Assembly (NCBI RefSeq): GCF_050920415.1
Contig: NZ_CP169309.1
DNA length: 64,000 bases
DNA from: Escherichia coli
Lineage (GTDB): Bacteria; Pseudomonadota; Gammaproteobacteria; Enterobacterales; Enterobacteriaceae
Strand: one strand, 5' to 3'
A program made the position numbers and the translations under genes. Numbering within the stretch: position 1 is the first letter of the stretch; the number at the start of each line of letters is the position of its first letter. This document shows, piece after piece, positions 54,893-64,000 of the stretch. The notes under the pieces are model-generated. The model saw only the letters and a list, made by a program, of their open reading frames with translations, searched no databases and had not been told where the DNA came from.

Positions 54893-57118
54893 ATGCGGTG
54901 GATCCTGTTCATCCTCTTCTGCCTGCTGGGCGCACCTGCCCATGCGGTATCCATACCCGGCGTTACAACCACAACGACAACGGACTCAACGACTGAACCG
55001 GCCCCGGAACCGGATATCGAACAAAAAAAAGCGGCCTATGGCGCACTGGCGGATGTGCTGGATAATGACACCTCGCGTAAAGAGTTGATCGACCAGTTGC
55101 GCACCGTCGCCGCTACGCCTCCTGCGGAACCCGTACCGAAGATCGTGCCGCCGACGCTGGTTGAAGAGCAAACCGTGCTGCAAAAAGTCACCGAAGTCAG
55201 CCGCCATTATGGTGAAGCCCTTTCCGCCCGCTTCGGACAGCTTTATCGCAATATCACCGGCTCCCCGCATAAGCCGTTTAATCCACAAACCTTCAGCAAT
55301 GCGTTGACCCATTTTTCAATGTTAGTGGTATTAGTGTTTGGTTTTTACTGGCTGATTCGCCTGTGCGCACTTCCGCTGTATCGCAAAATGGGCCAGTGGG
55401 CGCGACAAAAAAATCGTGAGCGCAGTAACTGGTTGCAGCTTCCGGCGATGATTATCGGGGCGTTTATTATCGACCTGCTGTTACTGGCACTGACATTATT
55501 TGTCGGCCAGGTCTTAAGCGACAACCTGAATGCGGGCAGTCGCACCATCGCTTTCCAACAAAGTTTGTTTCTCAACGCCTTTGCCCTGATTGAATTTTTC
55601 AAAGCCGTATTACGCCTGATTTTTTGCCCCAACGTGGCGGAGCTGCGCCCGTTCACGATTCATGACGAGACCGCCCGTTACTGGAGCCGTCGCCTGAGCT
55701 GGTTAAGCAGCCTGATTGGCTATGGCCTGATTGTGGCCGTGCCGATTATCTCTAATCAGGTGAATGTACAGATAGGTGCGCTGGCGAACGTCATCATTAT
55801 GCTGTGCATGACGGTCTGGGCGTTGTACCTGATCTTTCGTAATAAAAAAGAGATTACCCAGCATTTGCTCAACTTCGCGGAGCATTCGCTGGCCTTTTTC
55901 AGCCTGTTTATCCGCGCCTTTGCGCTGGTGTGGCACTGGCTGGCAAGCGCCTATTTTATCGTGCTGTTTTTCTTTTCGTTGTTCGATCCGGGCAACAGCC
56001 TGAAATTTATGATGGGTGCAACGGTACGCAGCCTGGCGATTATTGGTATCGCCGCGTTTGTTTCCGGTATGTTTTCCCGCTGGCTGGCGAAAACCATCAC
56101 TCTCTCGCCACATACTCAGCGTAATTATCCGGAACTGCAAAAACGGCTGAACGGCTGGCTGTCGGCGGCACTGAAAACGGCGCGTATTCTGACAGTCTGC
56201 GTGGCGGTAATGCTGCTGTTGAGCGCATGGGGATTGTTCGATTTCTGGAACTGGCTGCAAAACGGTGCGGGGCAGAAAACCGTAGATATCCTGATCCGTA
56301 TCGCACTCATTCTTTTCTTCTCGGCGGTTGGCTGGACGGTGCTCGCCAGTTTGATCGAAAACCGGCTGGCTTCGGATATTCATGGCCGCCCGCTACCCAG
56401 CGCCCGTACGCGTACCCTGCTGACGCTGTTCCGTAACGCGCTGGCGGTGATTATCAGTACCATCACCATCATGATTGTGTTGTCGGAAATCGGCGTTAAT
56501 ATCGCGCCATTGCTGGCAGGTGCCGGTGCATTGGGGCTGGCTATCTCTTTTGGTTCGCAAACGCTGGTGAAAGATATCATCACCGGCGTGTTTATACAGT
56601 TTGAAAACGGCATGAACACTGGAGATTTGGTGACTATCGGGCCGCTGACCGGCACTGTGGAACGGATGTCGATTCGCTCCGTGGGAGTGCGTCAGGATAC
56701 CGGGGCGTATCACATCATTCCGTGGTCTTCGATTACCACCTTTGCTAACTTTGTCCGCGGCATTGGTTCGGTAGTGGCAAATTACGATGTTGATCGCCAT
56801 GAAGATGCTGATAAAGCCAATCAGGCACTGAAAGAGGCGGTAGCGGAATTAATGGAAAACGAAGAAATTCGCGGGTTGATTATCGGTGAACCGAACTTTG
56901 CCGGGATTGTCGGCTTAAGCAATACCGCGTTTACACTGCGTGTTTCATTCACCACGCTGCCTCTCAAACAGTGGACGGTCCGCTTTGCCCTCGACAGCCA
57001 GGTGAAAAAGCATTTCGACCTGGCTGGTGTTCGCGCGCCGGTACAGACTTATCAGGTGCTGCCCGCTCCGGGCGCGGCCCCGGCTGAACCGCTGCCACCG
57101 GGAGAACCAACGCTTTAA
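54893..57118 (+). CDS. ybiO: Mechanosensitive channel, MscS family (YbiO)
   Basis: 741-aa product from MRWILF with signal peptide, multiple TM helices and MscS-like C-terminal domain; GGAGG RBS. Confidence 0.9.
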
Positions 57119-58041
57119 CGCTGGCGATTGACAAAACGACGGCGTTGCTCGTCGTTCATAAAGGTCCAGGCAATAAAGCGACTCTGCTTTTGCCCCTGGG
57201 CCATCTCTTTTTTAACCACTTTCACCGCGCCCACGTCCGTCAGAGCACGATACAACGGCGGCAAGTTTTCGCCACGAGATACCAGCGAGGTAAACCACAT
57301 AACCTGCTTCGCGAAGCCTTTGCTCTCTTCAATCATCTTTTTGATAAAAGCGACTTCACCGCCTTCACACCACAACTCCTGTTGCTGACCACCAAAGTTC
57401 AGTGCATCGTCTTTGTTCAGCCCCAGGTTACGGCGTTTACGTTCACTACCTGCCCGTGCCGCAGCGGCGGAATCGTGGAATGGCGGGTTACACAAGGTCG
57501 CGTCGTATTGCTCGTTTTTGTGGATAATACCGTTAAAAATCGCCCCGCTCTCTTTCTGCCGACGCAGACGAATGGCGCGGTTAAGCCCCGGATTAGCACT
57601 GATGATCGCCTGCGCGCTGCTTAACGCCTGGCTGCTGGTTTCACTACCGGTAAAACGCCAGCCATATTCGTGTACGCCAATCAGCGGATAAATACAGTTC
57701 GCACCAACGCCGATATCCAGAATGCTGGCATTAGCTGGAATTGATCCTGTTGCTTCTGCCAGTAAATCGGCAAGGTGATGAATATAATCCGCCCGGCCCG
57801 GTACTGGCGGGCAGAGAAAACCGTCCGGGATATCCCAGTTCGCTACGGCGTAAAAATGGGCCAGCAACGCCTTATTGAGCGCCTTCACCGCCAGCGGATT
57901 GGCAAAGTCTACGCTTTGCTCCCCGGCGGGTGTAAGCGTGAGGAATTGCCTGAGTTCAGGATTCACCTGACAAAGCGTGGCGAGATCGTAGCGGCTGTGA
58001 TGACGGTTGCGCGGATGCAACCCCGGTTTCTGGGCGGACAT
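57115..58041 (-). CDS. rlmF: 23S rRNA m6A1618 methyltransferase
   Basis: 308-aa product from [15 protein letters not shown]; NPPF motif. Confidence 0.9.
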
Positions 58042-58316
58042 AGCATTCTCCTTTAAGCAGCGGCGTAAGATACCCGCATAACGCGACAGGGTAAATATCT
58101 GGCGTCGTGTATCATGCGCAAAATATGCCACTTATCTTGTTACCCCATCAATTCATCATAAAAATCAGCATCATGCATGTCATTGATTTGTCTTATTTGG
58201 TAAAAATATATCGTTCAAAAAATAAGCGCATCTCTGTCAATTTTTTGCGTCATTTTCATCGCCCAGGCGACCTACACTTATCAGGCACTACCCGTTGTAT
58301 TTATGAGGATGTCATT

Positions 58317-58577
58317 ATGAAAAAGTGCCTCACACTACTGATTGCCACCGTCCTGAGTGGAATCTCTCTCACGGCTTATGCCGCGCAACCGATGAGTAAC
58401 CTGGACAGCGGTCAGCTACGGCCCGCCGGTACCGTTTCGGCAACTGGCGCATCAAACCTAAGCGATCTGGAGGGTAAACTGGCAGAAAAAGCGCGCGAGC
58501 AAGGCGCGAAAGGTTATGTCATTAATTCCGCAGGCGGAAATGACCAGATGTTCGGTACTGCAACCATCTACAAATAA
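58317..58577 (+). CDS. mcbA: DUF1471-family periplasmic protein McbA/YbiM
   Basis: 86-aa product with signal peptide; paralogous in sequence to YbiJ in this window. Confidence 0.85.
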   Translation: MKKCLTLLIATVLSGISLTAYAAQPMSNLDSGQLRPAGTVSATGASNLSDLEGKLAEKAREQGAKGYVINSAGGNDQMFGTATIYK

Positions 58578-58589
58578 CCCCACCAACGT

Positions 58590-58625
58590 AACTGCATTCG
58601 CCTCTGGATGCAGTTTTCGCCTGTT
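58590..58625. terminator. Rho-independent terminator-like hairpin after mcbA
   Basis: ctgcat...atgcag stem followed by a T run. Confidence 0.5.
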
Positions 58626-58712
58626 TTGTAATCAAAAAACATCAAATATGAACGCAATGTAAATAAATGTATTTCTTTTTCGCGCAATGGGTGATAGAAA
58701 ATCGCGCCAAGT

Positions 58713-58737
58713 GATAATGCTTATCAAAATTATTATC
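58713..58737. promoter_or_regulatory. Fur box upstream of fiu
   Basis: gataatgcttatcaaaattattatc closely matches the Fur consensus GATAATGATAATCATTATC. Confidence 0.8.
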
Positions 58738-58841
58738 ACTTGCACGAACACTATCACGGGATTAACAGTGGCATCGCATCCGAAGAGAGGCTTTCTCGTG
58801 ACAGTGAAAATTTCAACATATAAGAAAAAGTCACCTGCAAA

Positions 58842-61124
58842 ATGGAAAACAATCGCAATTTCCCTGCCAGACAATTTCATTCGCTCACGTTCTTTGCCGG
58901 TCTTTGTATTGGTATTACGCCTGTGGCACAGGCACTCGCCGCCGAAGGGCAAACTAACGCGGATGACACGCTGGTTGTCGAAGCATCAACGCCTTCGCTT
59001 TATGCACCACAACAATCTGCCGATCCGAAATTCTCGCGTCCGGTAGCGGATACGACCCGCACGATGACGGTGATTTCTGAACAAGTGATTAAAGATCAGG
59101 GTGCAACCAACCTTACCGACGCGCTCAAAAACGTCCCCGGCGTGGGTGCGTTTTTTGCGGGTGAGAACGGTAACTCCACCACTGGCGACGCCATTTATAT
59201 GCGTGGTGCCGATACCTCTAACAGTATTTATATTGATGGCATTCGCGATATCGGCAGCGTCTCGCGCGACACCTTCAATACCGAGCAGGTCGAAGTGATT
59301 AAAGGGCCGTCCGGCACCGACTACGGGCGCAGCGCACCGACGGGCTCGATCAATATGATCAGCAAGCAGCCGCGCAATGATTCGGGCATTGACGCCTCCG
59401 CCAGTATTGGCAGCGCCTGGTTCCGCCGCGGCACGCTGGACGTCAATCAGGTCATTGGTGATACCACCGCGGTGCGCCTGAATGTAATGGGTGAAAAAAC
59501 GCACGATGCCGGACGCGACAAAGTTAAAAATGAGCGTTACGGCGTCGCCCCTTCTGTCGCTTTTGGCCTTGGCACAGCGAATCGTTTGTATCTTAATTAT
59601 CTGCATGTCACCCAGCACAACACGCCAGACGGCGGCATTCCGACCATCGGTTTGCCGGGCTATTCTGCCCCATCGGCGGGAACGGCGGCCCTGAATCATT
59701 CCGGAAAAGTTGATACGCATAATTTTTATGGCACGGATTCCGATTACGATGATTCGACCACCGACACCGCTACCATGCGTTTTGAGCACGACATTAGCGA
59801 GAACACCACTATTCGCAACACTACGCGTTGGTCGCGCGTGAAGCAGGATTACCTGATGACGGCGATTATGGGCGGGGCATCAAATATTACCCAGCCCACC
59901 AGCAATGTGGATAGCTGGACCTGGTCCCGTATTGCGAATACTAAAGATGTGAGTAATAAAATTCTCACCAACCAGACCAACCTGACCTCGACGTTCTATA
60001 CCGGCTCTATCGGTCATGATGTCAGTACCGGCGTGGAATTTACCCGTGAAACACAAACCAACTACGGCGTTAATCCGCTGACGTTACCCGCGGTGAATAT
60101 TTATCATCCTGGCAGCAGCATTCATCCTGGCGGCCTGACGCGCAACGGCGCAAACGCCAATGGTCAGACGGACACCTTCGCAATTTATGCTTTCGATACG
60201 CTGCAAATCACCCGTGATTTTGAGTTGAACGGCGGGATCCGTCTGGATAATTATCATACTGAATATGACAGTGCCACCGCCTGCGGCGGCAGTGGCCGAG
60301 GTGCCGTTACCTGCCCAGCTGGCGTGGCGAAAGGTTCTCCGGTCACCACTGTTGACACCGCCAAGTCTGGCAATCTGGTGAACTGGAAAGCCGGGGCGCT
60401 GTATCACCTGACGGAAAACGGCAATGTCTATATTAACTATGCCGTTTCCCAGCAGCCGCCGGGTGGCAACAACTTCGCCCTTGCGCAGTCTGGCAGCGGT
60501 AACAGTGCCAACCGCACCGATTTTAAACCGCAAAAAGCCAACACCAGCGAGATTGGCACCAAATGGCAGGTTCTGGATAAACGCCTGTTGCTTACCGCCG
60601 CGCTGTTCCGTACTGATATCGAAAATGAAGTTGAGCAAAATGACGACGGAACTTACTCGCAATACGGTAAGAAACGCGTCGAAGGCTATGAGATATCCGT
60701 GGCCGGGAATATCACTCCCGCGTGGCAGGTGATTGGCGGCTATACCCAGCAAAAAGCAACCATCAAAAACGGCAAAGATGTTGCCCAGGATGGTTCCTCA
60801 TCGCTGCCCTATACGCCTGAGCACGCCTTCACGTTATGGAGCCAGTATCAGGCAACCGATGATATTTCCGTTGGTGCGGGCGCACGCTATATCGGCAGTA
60901 TGCATAAAGGTTCTGACGGCGCGGTGGGAACGCCAGCGTTTACCGAAGGTTATTGGGTCGCCGACGCTAAACTGGGGTATCGGGTTAATCGCAATCTCGA
61001 CTTCCAGCTAAACGTCTACAACCTATTTGATACCGATTACGTCGCCTCAATCAACAAGAGCGGCTACCGTTATCACCCGGGCGAGCCAAGAACCTTCCTG
61101 CTCACGGCCAATATGCATTTCTGA
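58842..61124 (+). CDS. fiu: TonB-dependent catecholate siderophore receptor Fiu
   Basis: 760-aa ORF with signal peptide, plug domain and C-terminal aromatic residue. Confidence 0.95.
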
Positions 61125-61129
61125 TTCAG

Positions 61130-61155
61130 ATGTGGGGCGCAGGCCCCACTTTTTG
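61130..61155. terminator. Rho-independent terminator after fiu
   Basis: gtggggc-gcag-gccccac hairpin followed by ttttt. Confidence 0.75.
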
Positions 61156-61165
61156 GAGAACTTGT

Positions 61166-61843
61166 ATGATGTACCACATTCCCGGCGTGCTATCGCCAAA
61201 GGACGTCGCCCGGTTTCGCGAACAACTGGAACAAGCCGAATGGGTGGATGGACGCGTCACCACCGGCGCACAAGGCGCGCAAGTTAAGAACAATCAACAG
61301 GTAGACACCCGCAGCACGTTATACGCCGCCCTGCAAAATGAGGTGCTGAACGCGGTTAACCAACATGCTTTGTTCTTTGCCGCGGCCTTGCCGCGTACCC
61401 TTTCCACGCCGCTGTTTAATCGCTATCAGAACAATGAAACCTATGGTTTCCATGTGGATGGCGCAGTACGCAGCCATCCACAAAACGGCTGGATGCGTAC
61501 TGACCTTTCTGCCACACTGTTTTTAAGCGATCCACAAAGCTACGACGGCGGCGAACTGGTCGTTAATGACACCTTCGGACAACATCGGGTAAAACTCCCG
61601 GCAGGCGATCTGGTGTTGTATCCCTCCAGCAGCCTGCACTGCGTGACCCCCGTAACCCGTGGCGTACGGGTGGCATCATTTATGTGGATCCAGTCGATGA
61701 TCCGCGATGATAAAAAGCGCGCCATGCTGTTCGAACTGGACACCAATATTCAGTCGCTGAAAAGCCGCCATGGCGAAAGTGAAGAGATCCTGTCGCTGCT
61801 CAATCTTTATCATAATCTGCTGCGGGAATGGTCGGAGATCTGA
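61166..61843 (+). CDS. ybiX: Fe(II)/2-oxoglutarate-dependent PKHD-type hydroxylase YbiX
   Basis: 225-aa product from [10 protein letters not shown] with HxD...H iron-binding pattern. Confidence 0.9.
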
Positions 61844-61916
61844 CGCTTGAACTGCCCGAGTTCGTCCCTATATTAGCTACACTTAACTGTACAAGCATTG
61901 ATATGGGGAGGACGAT

Positions 61917-62183
61917 ATGGCATCCGGTTGGGCTAACGATGACGCCGTCAACGAACAGATCAACAGTACAATTGAAGATGCGATTGCTCGTGCCCGGGGT
62001 GAAATTCCGCGTGGCGAGAGCCTGTATGAATGTGAAGAGTGCGGCGCCCCCATCCCGCAGGCCCGTCGGGAAGCCATTCCTGGCGTGCGCTTATGCATTC
62101 ATTGTCAGCAGGAGAAAGATTTACAAAAACCAGATTATACAGGATATAATCGCAGAGGTTCGAAAGACAGCCAGTTACGTTAA
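61917..62183 (+). CDS. ybiI: DksA/TraR-family C4 zinc-finger protein YbiI
   Basis: 88-aa ORF with CxxC-N17-CxxC zinc finger (CEECG ... CIHC). Confidence 0.9.
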   Translation: MASGWANDDAVNEQINSTIEDAIARARGEIPRGESLYECEECGAPIPQARREAIPGVRLCIHCQQEKDLQKPDYTGYNRRGSKDSQLR

Positions 62184-62447
62184 CTACAACTGGCGGGATG
62201 TATAGCGAGTATAATTTGTATTTTGCGTGGCATTCCGTGCCTTTAACGCTGTCGTGACTGCCACGCTGCATAAAACAAGTCCATAAGTTCAACAAATAAA
62301 TGGATTATCAGTATGTTAGATATCAATCAATTTATTTGAACAAGGCGGTCAATTCTCTTCGATTTTATCTCTCGAAAAAAAACGTGATACTCATCACATC
62401 GACGAAACAACGTCACTTATACAAAAATCACCTGCGAGAGATTAATT

Positions 62448-62708
62448 ATGAAAACTATCAATACTGTTGTTGCTGCTATGGCTCTTTCAACTCTGTCATT
62501 TGGCGTGTTCGCGGCGGAACCGGTAACGGCATCCCAGGCACAGAACATGAATAAAATCGGCGTGGTTTCTGCTGATGGCGCATCCACCCTCGATGCCCTG
62601 GAAGCGAAACTGGCTGAGAAAGCTGCGGCAGCTGGGGCGAGTGGATACAGCATCACTTCCGCCACCAACAACAATAAATTAAGCGGTACTGCGGTAATTT
62701 ATAAGTAA
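62448..62708 (+). CDS. ybiJ: DUF1471-family periplasmic protein YbiJ
   Basis: 86-aa ORF with signal peptide; paralogous to McbA. Confidence 0.9.
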   Translation: MKTINTVVAAMALSTLSFGVFAAEPVTASQAQNMNKIGVVSADGASTLDALEAKLAEKAAAAGASGYSITSATNNNKLSGTAVIYK

Positions 62709-62710
62709 TT

Positions 62711-62746
62711 CGTAGGCCGGATAAGGCGTTTACGCTACGTCCAGCA
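62711..62746. repeat. REP element
   Basis: taggccggataaggcgtttacgc REP-like palindrome immediately after ybiJ. Confidence 0.55.
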
Positions 62747-62847
62747 CAAGTATTTCCCTGTCTGTTTGCCGACAGACGCATATGCTCTAACCCTCATTGA
62801 TCCTATGTTACCCTTGTTTGCCCGTCCGTCACTGGACGGGCTTTTTT

Positions 62848-63934
<1,087 letters not shown>

Positions 63935-63942
63935 ATTAACTC

Positions 63943-64000
<58 letters not shown>

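Follow-up and report, generated by a model that had tools for sequence, protein, structure and literature searches.

Members of the DUF1471 (YhcN/BhsA/McbA) family are stress-induced proteins of the cell envelope. They are small, single-domain and roughly 90 residues long, and carry a signal sequence at the N-terminus (PMC4092069). BhsA (YcfR), a multiple-stress-resistance protein reported to be located in the outer membrane and induced by many stresses, has the same 85-86-residue architecture as McbA and YbiJ and is a close paralog of both (41% and 46% identity, respectively); unlike mcbA and ybiJ, its gene lies in another locus, comR-bhsA-ldtC. Fur-repressed genes for a TonB-dependent receptor and a 2OG/Fe(II) dioxygenase form a further described system (fiu-ybiX, piuA-piuC, cciT-cciO); pairs of the fiu/ybiX type are co-conserved across Proteobacteria (bioRxiv 10.1101/2024.10.16.618771). 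At the locus studied here, one such pair lies between mcbA and ybiJ, the DUF1471 genes being no part of it. The paralogy of mcbA and ybiJ and the Fur control of fiu, ybiX and ybiI have already been published (PMC4092069; bioRxiv 10.1101/2025.02.11.637708; PMC10164565), bearing out a first-pass annotation that had presented the arrangement as known biology; the finding is correct but ordinary.

The segment lies on the Escherichia coli chromosome, within the 64-kb stretch of DNA analysed (the window), in the order rlmF / mcbA-fiu-ybiX-ybiI-ybiJ / hcxB. It is found with identical gene names in 5,416 of 5,426 complete E. coli genomes and is part of the core chromosome, yet only one of the 5,426 matches it at 99% identity or better, which identifies the present version as a divergent allele. 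K-12 has the same two DUF1471 genes (mcbA, b0806; ybiJ, b0802) in the same order and orientation, with the same domain, size, signal peptide and fold. YbiJ is 100% identical to its K-12 counterpart, McbA departs from it at one residue (D53G) and the DNA of the locus is 96.4% identical. There is no difference of substance, the REP-containing stretch 3' of ybiJ being shorter here. In all likelihood, the locus consists of two old DUF1471 paralogs, expressed as units of their own, around a Fur-controlled and repeatedly lost fiu-ybiX pair, with ybiI served by a sigma-S promoter.

Two DUF1471 proteins of common architecture

The mcbA gene (ybiM; 58317..58577, plus strand) and the ybiJ gene (62448..62708, plus strand) each encode an 86-residue DUF1471 periplasmic protein precursor. 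Open reading frames, RefSeq coding sequences (at the same places in the 100%-identical record NZ_CP169399.1) and matches to PF07338 all agree with the first-pass assignment. The Pfam match extends over residues 34-86 in both proteins, scoring 66.5 bits in McbA and 64.8 bits in YbiJ (cut-off 27). When compared with the NCBIfam models, each protein scored best with its own model and above the curated cut-off of 110: McbA gave 172.5 bits with NF040473 and YbiJ 173.1 bits with NF007611, the second-best model being that of BhsA in both cases (100.2 and 116.2 bits). Thus, the proteins are named by their own models rather than BhsA's, even though both exceed the BhsA cut-off of 90 bits.

The two proteins had been described as paralogs of near-identical architecture. 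A BLASTP alignment showed 40 of 86 residues to be identical (47%) with no gaps (E 7e-16), a likeness that, judged from the sequences, lies far above chance. Residues 1-22 are hydrophobic (GRAVY 1.31 in McbA and 1.35 in YbiJ), start with a Lys and finish in an AxA-like end (AYA|AQ and VFA|AE, respectively), so that, by inspection, both proteins are predicted to be precursors with a 22-residue signal peptide and a mature part of 64 residues. The RefSeq product name for McbA includes the word "periplasmic". The C-terminal TAxIYK was read in both (TATIYK and TAVIYK). A second motif attributed to the pair, LDxLEAKLAEKA, is matched exactly in YbiJ (LDALEAKLAEKA) but not in McbA, which in this strain has LSDLEGKLAEKA and differs at two positions. 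The restriction of the DUF1471 family to Enterobacteriaceae/Enterobacterales holds for both proteins: named relatives of McbA occur only in Escherichia, Shigella, Citrobacter, Leclercia or Huaxiibacter; all loci positive for ybiJ or mcbA are from Enterobacteriaceae, except for one metagenome-assembled genome (MAG) labelled "Proteobacteria bacterium" (L077); and neither gene was found at the ybiI loci of Pseudomonas.

An AlphaFold2 model of McbA, with pLDDT of at least 90 over residues 34-86, shows a strand-helix-strand-strand arrangement spanning residues 36-85. The top PDB matches of this model in Foldseek were 2jna, 4evu, 2ma8, 2y1b and 2noc. The predicted domain superposes on Salmonella SrfN (2jna/2ma8), YdgH-C (4evu), YahO (2ma4) and RcsF (2y1b), with a TM score of 0.68 on 4evu and rmsd values of 2.4-3.2 Å over 57-69 columns, at sequence identities of 13-36%. 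RcsF, unlike McbA, is a lipoprotein with disulfides and stands outside the DUF1471 family. McbA is thereby modelled with the mixed alpha+beta fold common to SrfN, YahO and the YdgH domains, a likeness reported earlier for the family (PMC4092069) and, for YbiJ, in a study presenting a model of that protein (bioRxiv 10.1101/2025.02.11.637708). Each protein would be exported by the Sec route via its signal peptide, to yield a 64-residue alpha+beta domain in the periplasm.

The Fur-controlled module and the probable separate transcription units

Between the DUF1471 genes, all on the same strand, lie fiu, ybiX and ybiI, in keeping with the description of an iron-regulated fiu-ybiX unit bracketed by mcbA and ybiJ. 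The fiu gene (58842..61124, plus strand) encodes a TonB-dependent catecholate siderophore receptor with plug and barrel domains (NF007349, 1497 bits; annotation), and ybiX (61166..61843, plus strand) its partner, a PKHD-type 2OG/Fe(II) hydroxylase (Pfam; NF003972, 514.8 bits). Candidate Fur sites overlapping a promoter were scored against the 19-bp consensus GATAATGATAATCATTATC or as 7-1-7 units (TGATAATnATTATCA). The window's best match to the 19-mer (15/19) is at 58713-58731, upstream of fiu, inside a Fur box at 58712..58738 made of two overlapping 7-1-7 sites, TGATAATgCTTATCA and TCAAAATtATTATCA, that score 13/14 and 12/14; the box previously placed at 58713..58737 is thus recovered to within one base at each end. 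A consensus scan also detected a promoter-like site, GTGATA-16-GATAAT (9/12), at 58691..58718 on the plus strand. Its -10 hexamer falls within the Fur box, and because of this overlap the site is a candidate for the fiu promoter. Fe(2+)-Fur bound to the double box would repress the module by occluding its promoter. In other species, each of the 20 loci that carry fiu has a Fur site scoring 12-13/14 ahead of this gene, and no Fur-like site above 10/14 was found upstream of ybiI in loci devoid of fiu; the Fur box goes along with fiu-ybiX. ChIP-exo and expression data place fiu in the core Fur regulon, and the Fur-1 iModulon includes fiu, ybiX and ybiI (PMC10164565), as the suggested check of regulon annotations had anticipated. 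Serum induces the same three genes (PMC4145685).

The fiu/ybiX spacer contains a stem-loop, GTGGGGC-loop-GCCCCAC (61132..61149, plus strand). The stem is kept in 16 of 18 distinct spacers aligned (with a G-U wobble at one pair in locus L012), the other two having a different G+C-rich hairpin. The T-run that follows is not conserved, suggesting that the structure is probably not a plain terminator. The stability of this hairpin counts against read-through from fiu into ybiI.

The adjacency of the five genes on one strand, together with the position of ybiJ next to Fur-regulated fhuF in a ranking of genes induced at pH 4.4 (PMC10746267), could be taken to mean that the DUF1471 proteins are functional accessories of Fiu-YbiX iron uptake, for example iron-co-regulated periplasmic partners, and flank the module for that reason. 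Regulation argues against this: the 64-kb scan found a single strong Fur-like site, that upstream of fiu, and none before mcbA or ybiJ, and the Fur-1 iModulon table that holds fiu, ybiX and ybiI lists neither DUF1471 gene (PMC10164565). Terminators and distinct conserved upstream regions at the DUF1471 genes point the same way. Upstream of mcbA, a -10-like element, CCTACACTTAT (58271..58281, plus strand), contains a CTAYRCTTA core of the sigma-S type. The core, as CTA(C/A)ACTTA, is conserved in all 11 genera aligned, which makes the element a putative promoter, CTAYRCTTA occurring six times in the window against about two expected from composition. Downstream, the sequence folds into a terminator hairpin, CTGCAT..ATGCAG followed by TTTT (58592..58617, plus strand), and a AACTGCAT...ATGCAGTT hairpin occupies this place in most other genera. 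McbR/YncC controls mcbA according to work cited in PMC4092069. A highly conserved block ahead of ybiJ (62348..62413, plus strand), near-invariant in 14 genera and including the palindrome GTGATACTCATCAC (62383-62397 region), may represent the promoter or operator of this gene, whose induction has been found to be acid-specific (PMC10746267).

The third gene of the interval, ybiI (61917..62183, plus strand), encodes a DksA/TraR-family C4 zinc-finger protein (PF01258; NF008243, 160 bits). The -10 consensus for sigma-S is KCTAYRCTTAA, and the element GCTACACTTAA at 61876..61886 (plus strand) matches it perfectly. This element is conserved in Escherichia, Salmonella, the C. freundii group and Kosakonia, with or without fiu-ybiX. 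Dependence of the ybiI promoter on sigma-S holoenzyme has been shown experimentally (PMC4447067), and an RpoS SELEX peak maps to the ybiX/ybiI spacer (PMC5493296). A sigma-S promoter thus serves ybiI directly, and the gene is more than a last cistron of the fiu operon; transcription reading through from fiu probably reaches it as well.

Each of mcbA, ybiI and ybiJ is preceded by a conserved upstream region of its own. A single operon running from mcbA to ybiJ was considered and rejected in view of the terminator after mcbA, the conserved promoter-like blocks before fiu, ybiI and ybiJ, and the absence of fiu-ybiX from 29 (+3) genomes in which the other genes are retained. With the promoters assigned as above, mcbA and ybiJ would be separate transcription units, each transcribed from its own upstream region to its own terminator, outside the iron-uptake module.

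Synteny and loss of fiu-ybiX in Enterobacteriaceae

A search with YbiI gave 80 genomes, whose gene order was compared. The most frequent order, with 29 loci, is mcbA-ybiI-ybiJ without fiu-ybiX; 20 loci have the five-gene form of E. coli and 12 have ybiI-ybiJ only. In those 29 genomes, ybiI is the sole gene between the two DUF1471 genes. Two genomes retain traces of the missing genes. E. albertii has kept, in this order, the mcbA terminator hairpin, 39 bp from the 5' part of the fiu coding sequence and the final 17 bases of ybiX; three further E. albertii assemblies have the same gene order. In Citrobacter sp. Awk 4, fiu is reduced to its final 42 codons and ybiX is split over two reading frames. 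These remnants imply loss in both organisms, not primary absence. Across Enterobacteriaceae, mcbA-ybiI-ybiJ forms the conserved neighbourhood; the two genes fiu and ybiX, along with their Fur box, make up a dispensable module placed between mcbA and ybiI.

These observations bear heavily on the idea that the DUF1471 proteins assist Fiu-YbiX. The mcbA/ybiJ pair exists without fiu-ybiX in 29 (+3) genomes, E. albertii having deleted the module and kept the pair, and Fiu/YbiX-type pairs occur across Proteobacteria without DUF1471 genes (bioRxiv 10.1101/2024.10.16.618771; PMC4092069). The idea is already largely refuted by synteny, and we give it hardly any credence. The first-pass statement that mcbA and ybiJ flank fiu-ybiX is correct as to position but does not extend to a functional linkage: the bracketing makes no functional unit, and what is conserved is mcbA-ybiI-ybiJ.

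On a different reading of the same distribution, fiu-ybiX would not be an old module that other lineages have lost; E. coli would have gained it recently by horizontal transfer, into an mcbA-ybiI-ybiJ cluster of ancestral origin. The pair is patchy among genera, and the mcbA|ybiI junction has received other cargo: 7.6-8.2 kb in Pseudescherichia vulneris, with ORFs whose translations suggest an amidohydrolase-like protein, a Liv-type ABC transporter and a LysR regulator, and a recombinase-like ORF in a Leclercia MAG. Recent insertion is nevertheless improbable, since the fiu fragments in E. albertii and Citrobacter sp. Awk 4 prove loss and the Fur box and intercistronic hairpin are conserved in place. 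Furthermore, in Citrobacter, Leclercia, Silvania and others, Fiu and YbiX are 83-90% and 80-88% identical to the E. coli proteins, values in step with those of the neighbouring YbiO, RlmF and YbiB, which fits vertical descent. The preferred account has DUF1471 - ybiI - DUF1471 as the conserved core and fiu-ybiX as a cassette accessory to it, placed at the mcbA|ybiI junction; the cassette would have been present in the Escherichia ancestor and repeatedly deleted in other lineages. Taken alone, presence and absence fit both fiu-ybiX at this site in the deepest ancestor and a single acquisition.

Origin of the pair and its relation to BhsA

By sequence, mcbA and ybiJ are old paralogs within the DUF1471 (YhcN/BhsA/McbA) family: their DNA is 50% identical, third codon positions only 30%, with no run of identity exceeding 9 bases. 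The pair may have arisen by local duplication, an origin that the phylogeny does not establish. Alternatively, one gene, most likely mcbA, could derive from a bhsA-like gene elsewhere and have landed beside ybiI, the present proximity being secondary. In the NCBIfam profiles, BhsA is nearer to McbA (100 vs 74.5 bits) and to YbiJ (116 vs 80.6 bits) than these are to each other. In Salmonella, the sequence nearest to McbA is that of YcfR/BhsA, with 47% (PMC4092069). The 3'UTRs of ybiJ and bhsA contain apparently homologous small RNAs, which mcbA lacks. Against these points, McbA-YbiJ shows the highest pairwise identity among the E. coli paralogs (47%, vs 41% for McbA-BhsA and 46% for YbiJ-BhsA), and a neighbour-joining tree unites the two at 71% bootstrap. 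McbA also changes more rapidly: between E. coli and C. koseri its identity is 72% and that of YbiJ 87%, a difference in rate that can distort profile scores. In C. koseri, mcbA and ybiJ are 747 bp apart with ybiI as the sole gene between them. Other DUF1471 paralogs adjoin each other too, for example yjfN-bsmA, and side-by-side paralogs are the usual signature of tandem duplication. On balance, a secondary proximity seems rather unlikely, though a serious contender, and local duplication is preferred. McbA and YbiJ may be each other's closest paralogs, but BhsA is about equally close.

The region 3' of ybiJ contains a REP-like element (62716..62745), recognised by alignment to K-12 and by a weak match to naRNA4 (REP-derived; 62715-62778) below the gathering score; the REP-containing stretch of K-12 is longer by about 89 bp. 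Next to it lies the equivalent of ZbiJ, the ybiJ 3'UTR small RNA (PMC8175672), at 62753..62849 on the plus strand: 96 of 97 bases are those of K-12 zbiJ (b4814), the covariance model matches 62782-62849 with 86.6 bits, and a terminator spans 62820-62849. ZbiJ resembles BhsB, the small RNA of the bhsA 3'UTR, and the two appear to be homologous, sharing the core AACCCUCAUU(G/A)A; no statement of this homology was found in the searchable papers. The chances seem evenly balanced that mcbA-ybiI-ybiJ is an ancestral stress cassette with a variable cargo site and that ZbiJ and BhsB are paralogous small RNAs duplicated together with their host genes. The cassette may consist of a DUF1471 protein, a sigma-S-driven TraR/DksA-like zinc finger and a second DUF1471 protein, and its cargo at the mcbA|ybiI junction may vary: some genera have fiu-ybiX there, Pseudescherichia has an ABC-transporter cluster and most have nothing. 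If this is true, the common core would predict overlapping targets for ZbiJ and BhsB, both Hfq-associated 3'UTR small RNAs, and their paralogous pairing would aid target prediction.

In itself, the bracketing by mcbA and ybiJ says no more than the existing annotation of this core E. coli locus and matters little. The position of the DUF1471 pair outside the iron module is a warning against reading adjacency as function. Fiu is an entry route for catecholate siderophores and for the antibiotic cefiderocol (bioRxiv 10.1101/2024.10.16.618771), and its gene is naturally missing from this locus in many Enterobacteriaceae, among them E. albertii, the Enterobacter cloacae group and several Citrobacter species, with the deletion scar visible in two cases.

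The mcbA-ybiJ interval and its proteins

In the ORF listing, mcbA (58317-58577) and ybiJ (62448-62708) lie on the + strand as 86-codon ORFs, exactly the positions and size claimed for them in the first-pass annotation. Three ORFs lie between them, all on the + strand like the pair, so that the two genes bracket fiu-ybiX-ybiI as had been described: fiu (58842-61124; 760 amino acids), encoding a TonB-dependent catecholate siderophore receptor, ybiX (61166-61843; 225 amino acids), for a PKHD-type hydroxylase, and ybiI (61917-62183; 88 amino acids), for a DksA/TraR-family zinc-finger protein. The segment from 58100 to 62900 matches E. coli NZ_CP169399.1 at 100% identity, and there RefSeq annotates mcbA, fiu, ybiX, ybiI and ybiJ at the matching positions, with rlmF and hcxB outside. 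Of 5,426 complete E. coli genomes, 5,416 carry 80% or more of this segment; K-12 is about 96.4% identical to the window at this locus, in reversed orientation. The genes from mcbA to ybiJ are ordinary, universally present and annotated, and the original observation is correct, as is its interpretation, both being known biology. Elsewhere in the window, at approximately 12000-44000, the ybiT side is separated from the opgE side by a P2-like prophage some 32 kb long, with genes for tail, baseplate, portal, terminase and replication endonuclease. NZ_CP169399.1 is the sole genome with 100% identity in the prophage flanks, which are 17.8 kb apart there instead of the 50.1 kb seen in the window; it therefore lacks a P2-like prophage at that site.

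Pairwise alignment of McbA and YbiJ, end to end and gap-free, gives 47% identity (E 7e-16), in agreement with the proposed paralogy, which is also stated outright in bioRxiv 10.1101/2025.02.11.637708. Residues 34-86 of both proteins match PF07338 (YdgH/BhsA/McbA-like, formerly DUF1471) far over the gathering score, and each protein exceeds the cut-off of its own NCBIfam model. The expected signal-peptide architecture is recognizable as a hydrophobic, putative 22-residue leader ending AYA/AQ or VFA/AE, followed by a predicted mature part of 64 residues; TAxIYK ends both proteins. The motif LDxLEAKLAEKA, attributed to the two alike, is exact in YbiJ (LDALEAKLAEKA) but not in McbA, which here reads LSDLEGKLAEKA, a motif residue being G in the window strain and D in K-12. 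The AlphaFold2 model of McbA is confident across residues 34-86; in the PDB it best matches the DUF1471 domains solved for SrfN, YdgH-C and YahO, as well as RcsF. Both PMC4092069 and the published model of YbiJ (bioRxiv 10.1101/2025.02.11.637708) are consistent with this fold.

Among the E. coli paralogs, the highest identity to McbA is that of YbiJ (47%), with BhsA (41%) next; YbiJ itself shows roughly equal similarity to McbA, BhsA and YhcN. A neighbor-joining tree joins McbA and YbiJ with 71% bootstrap support and then adds BhsA (66%), in conflict with profile scores that place BhsA nearer to McbA and to YbiJ than these two are to each other. Adjacency favours a local duplication as the probable origin of the pair, because ybiI alone separates mcbA from ybiJ in many genomes and yjfN-bsmA, another DUF1471 pair, also lies side by side. 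The two genes are 50% identical in DNA and 30% identical at third positions, with a longest identical run of 9 bases; these values rule out recent gene conversion, and the third-position figure marks the duplication as old.

Fur control and transcription units

All 19-mers and all 7-1-7 15-mers were scored against the Fur consensus on both strands of the 64 kb. The single best 19-mer match in the window (15/19) falls within 58712-58738, where a Fur box had been proposed (58713-58737). The interval holds two overlapping 7-1-7 sites (13/14 and 12/14) and overlaps the -10 element of a promoter-like site at 58691-58718, from which we infer a classical layout for repression by promoter occlusion. 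By published data, fiu belongs to the core Fur regulon, fiu, ybiX and ybiI are found together in the Fur-1 iModulon (PMC10164565), and serum induces all three (PMC4145685). Neither the Fur-1 iModulon (PMC10164565) nor the serum-induced list (PMC4145685) contains mcbA or ybiJ. In comparison loci from other genomes, a Fur site of 12-13/14 is present upstream of fiu wherever fiu is carried, and no site above 10/14 precedes ybiI in loci devoid of fiu. The Fur box thus belongs to the fiu-ybiX module, and intrinsic Fur control of ybiI was dropped as an explanation on account of the low upstream scores in fiu-less genomes. One other strong Fur-like 7-1-7 site, TGATAATAATCATCA at 8939-8953, ties with the fiu site at 13/14; the annotation there is DUF1479 protein (ybiU)/ybiV/ybiW.

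The mcbA gene is controlled by McbR/YncC (PMC4092069). A conserved CCTACACTTAT lies upstream of the gene at 58271-58281, and a hairpin with a T-run follows it at 58592-58617, as it does 3' of mcbA in most other genera. A G+C-rich stem-loop, GTGGGGC-loop-GCCCCAC (61132-61149, +), separates the fiu stop codon from the ybiX ribosome-binding site; it is kept in 16 of 18 distinct aligned spacers and replaced at the same place by a different hairpin in the other two. A terminator was rejected since the stem is conserved and the T-run is not; candidate roles are those of an attenuator, an RNA stabiliser or a processing barrier. Upstream of ybiI, GCTACACTTAA (61876-61886), which fits the sigma-S -10 consensus at every position, is conserved with or without fiu-ybiX upstream. 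Peano et al. showed the ybiI promoter to be rpoS-dependent and to prefer the sigma-S holoenzyme (PMC4447067), and genomic SELEX located an RpoS peak within the ybiX/ybiI spacer (PMC5493296). The 66 bp upstream of ybiJ at 62348-62413 (+) are almost invariant in 14 genera and contain a palindrome, GTGAT-ACTC-ATCAC, over the -10-like GATACT; it looks like an operator for some regulator. Induction of ybiJ is reported to be specific to acid (PMC10746267).

Synteny and loss of fiu-ybiX

One genome per species was scanned with a YbiI alignment, and the 80 loci obtained were classified by tblastn. The order mcbA-ybiI-ybiJ was found at 29 loci (plus 3 partly resolved), the Enterobacter cloacae group among them, and the full mcbA-fiu-ybiX-ybiI-ybiJ order at 20. 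Twelve loci (plus 2 partly resolved) hold ybiI-ybiJ only (Salmonella arizonae/diarizonae, Kosakonia, Phytobacter), ybiI stands alone in unrelated context at 11 (Pseudomonas and others), and three are single cases (L057, L064 and L085). Beyond Escherichia, McbA orthologs are present in Citrobacter, Leclercia and Huaxiibacter. The gene order of C. koseri and of Huaxiibacter is rlmF/mcbA-ybiI-ybiJ/ybiB, without fiu-ybiX. The seven Pseudomonas loci L078, L079, L082, L084, L086, L088 and L091 encode YbiI homologs 72-75% identical to that of E. coli, with none of the enterobacterial neighbours present. Such identity between orders is unusually high for an 88-amino-acid protein of uncharacterised function.

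Remnants show that fiu-ybiX was lost by deletion in two lineages. In E. albertii (L013, 6777-6999), 39 bp of fiu 5' coding sequence persist between the mcbA terminator and the final 17 bases of ybiX, and the gene order of this locus recurs in three more assemblies of the species. In Citrobacter sp. Awk 4 (L057, 8068-8915), fiu is reduced to its last 42 codons and ybiX is split over two reading frames. Since the identities of Fiu and YbiX to their E. coli counterparts track those of the flanking proteins, sequence comparison argues for probable vertical descent of fiu-ybiX followed by loss. A fiu/ybiX-type pair is a co-conserved two-gene unit throughout Proteobacteria (bioRxiv 10.1101/2024.10.16.618771). 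The mcbA/ybiI junction holds other material elsewhere: in Pseudescherichia vulneris and a relative (L069 and L070, 1359-9000), a cluster of 7.6-8.2 kb whose ORFs suggest an amidohydrolase, a Liv-type ABC transporter and a LysR regulator, and in a Leclercia MAG (L061, 4893-5919), a serine-recombinase-like ORF, all functions being guessed from ORF translations. The survey shows that the bracketing by mcbA and ybiJ is an accident of synteny around a dispensable, Fur-controlled cassette.

The ybiJ 3' region

The equivalent of ZbiJ, the sRNA from the ybiJ 3'UTR, lies at 62753-62849 (+) and is identical to K-12 at 96 of 97 bases, its 3' 70 nt being strongly conserved across Enterobacteriaceae. The small ORF ybiE (62653-62781, -), antisense to ZbiJ and 19 amino acids long in K-12, has lost its stop codon because the REP-containing stretch is shorter in the window strain than in K-12; the frame stays open over 42 codons, reaching into the ybiJ 3' end. 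A search of 56500-64000 by Rfam E-value gave no curated Rfam family covering ZbiJ and nothing beyond three matches below threshold, all located 3' of ybiJ (one naRNA4/REP-like and two others).

A covariance model trained on ybiJ 3'UTRs only matched full-length BhsB, the sRNA from the bhsA 3'UTR, in K-12 (L003 5330-5403, +) with 36.6 bits (E about 4e-7). The highest background score in 1.35 Mb from other loci, leaving aside matches downstream of ybiJ, was 22.7 bits, and the mcbA 3' region gave no match. A ZbiJ-like match at the ybiJ-less locus of Intestinirhabdus (L064) was discarded as evidence for an independent sRNA: it keeps the terminator part alone and has lost the core motif. ZbiJ and BhsB have in common the core AACCCUCAUU(G/A)A, and their resemblance suggests that they may be paralogous 3'UTR sRNAs. 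No mention of it was found in the searched papers, of which PMC8175672 alone names both sRNAs. This apparent homology is one small lead beyond the known biology of the locus.
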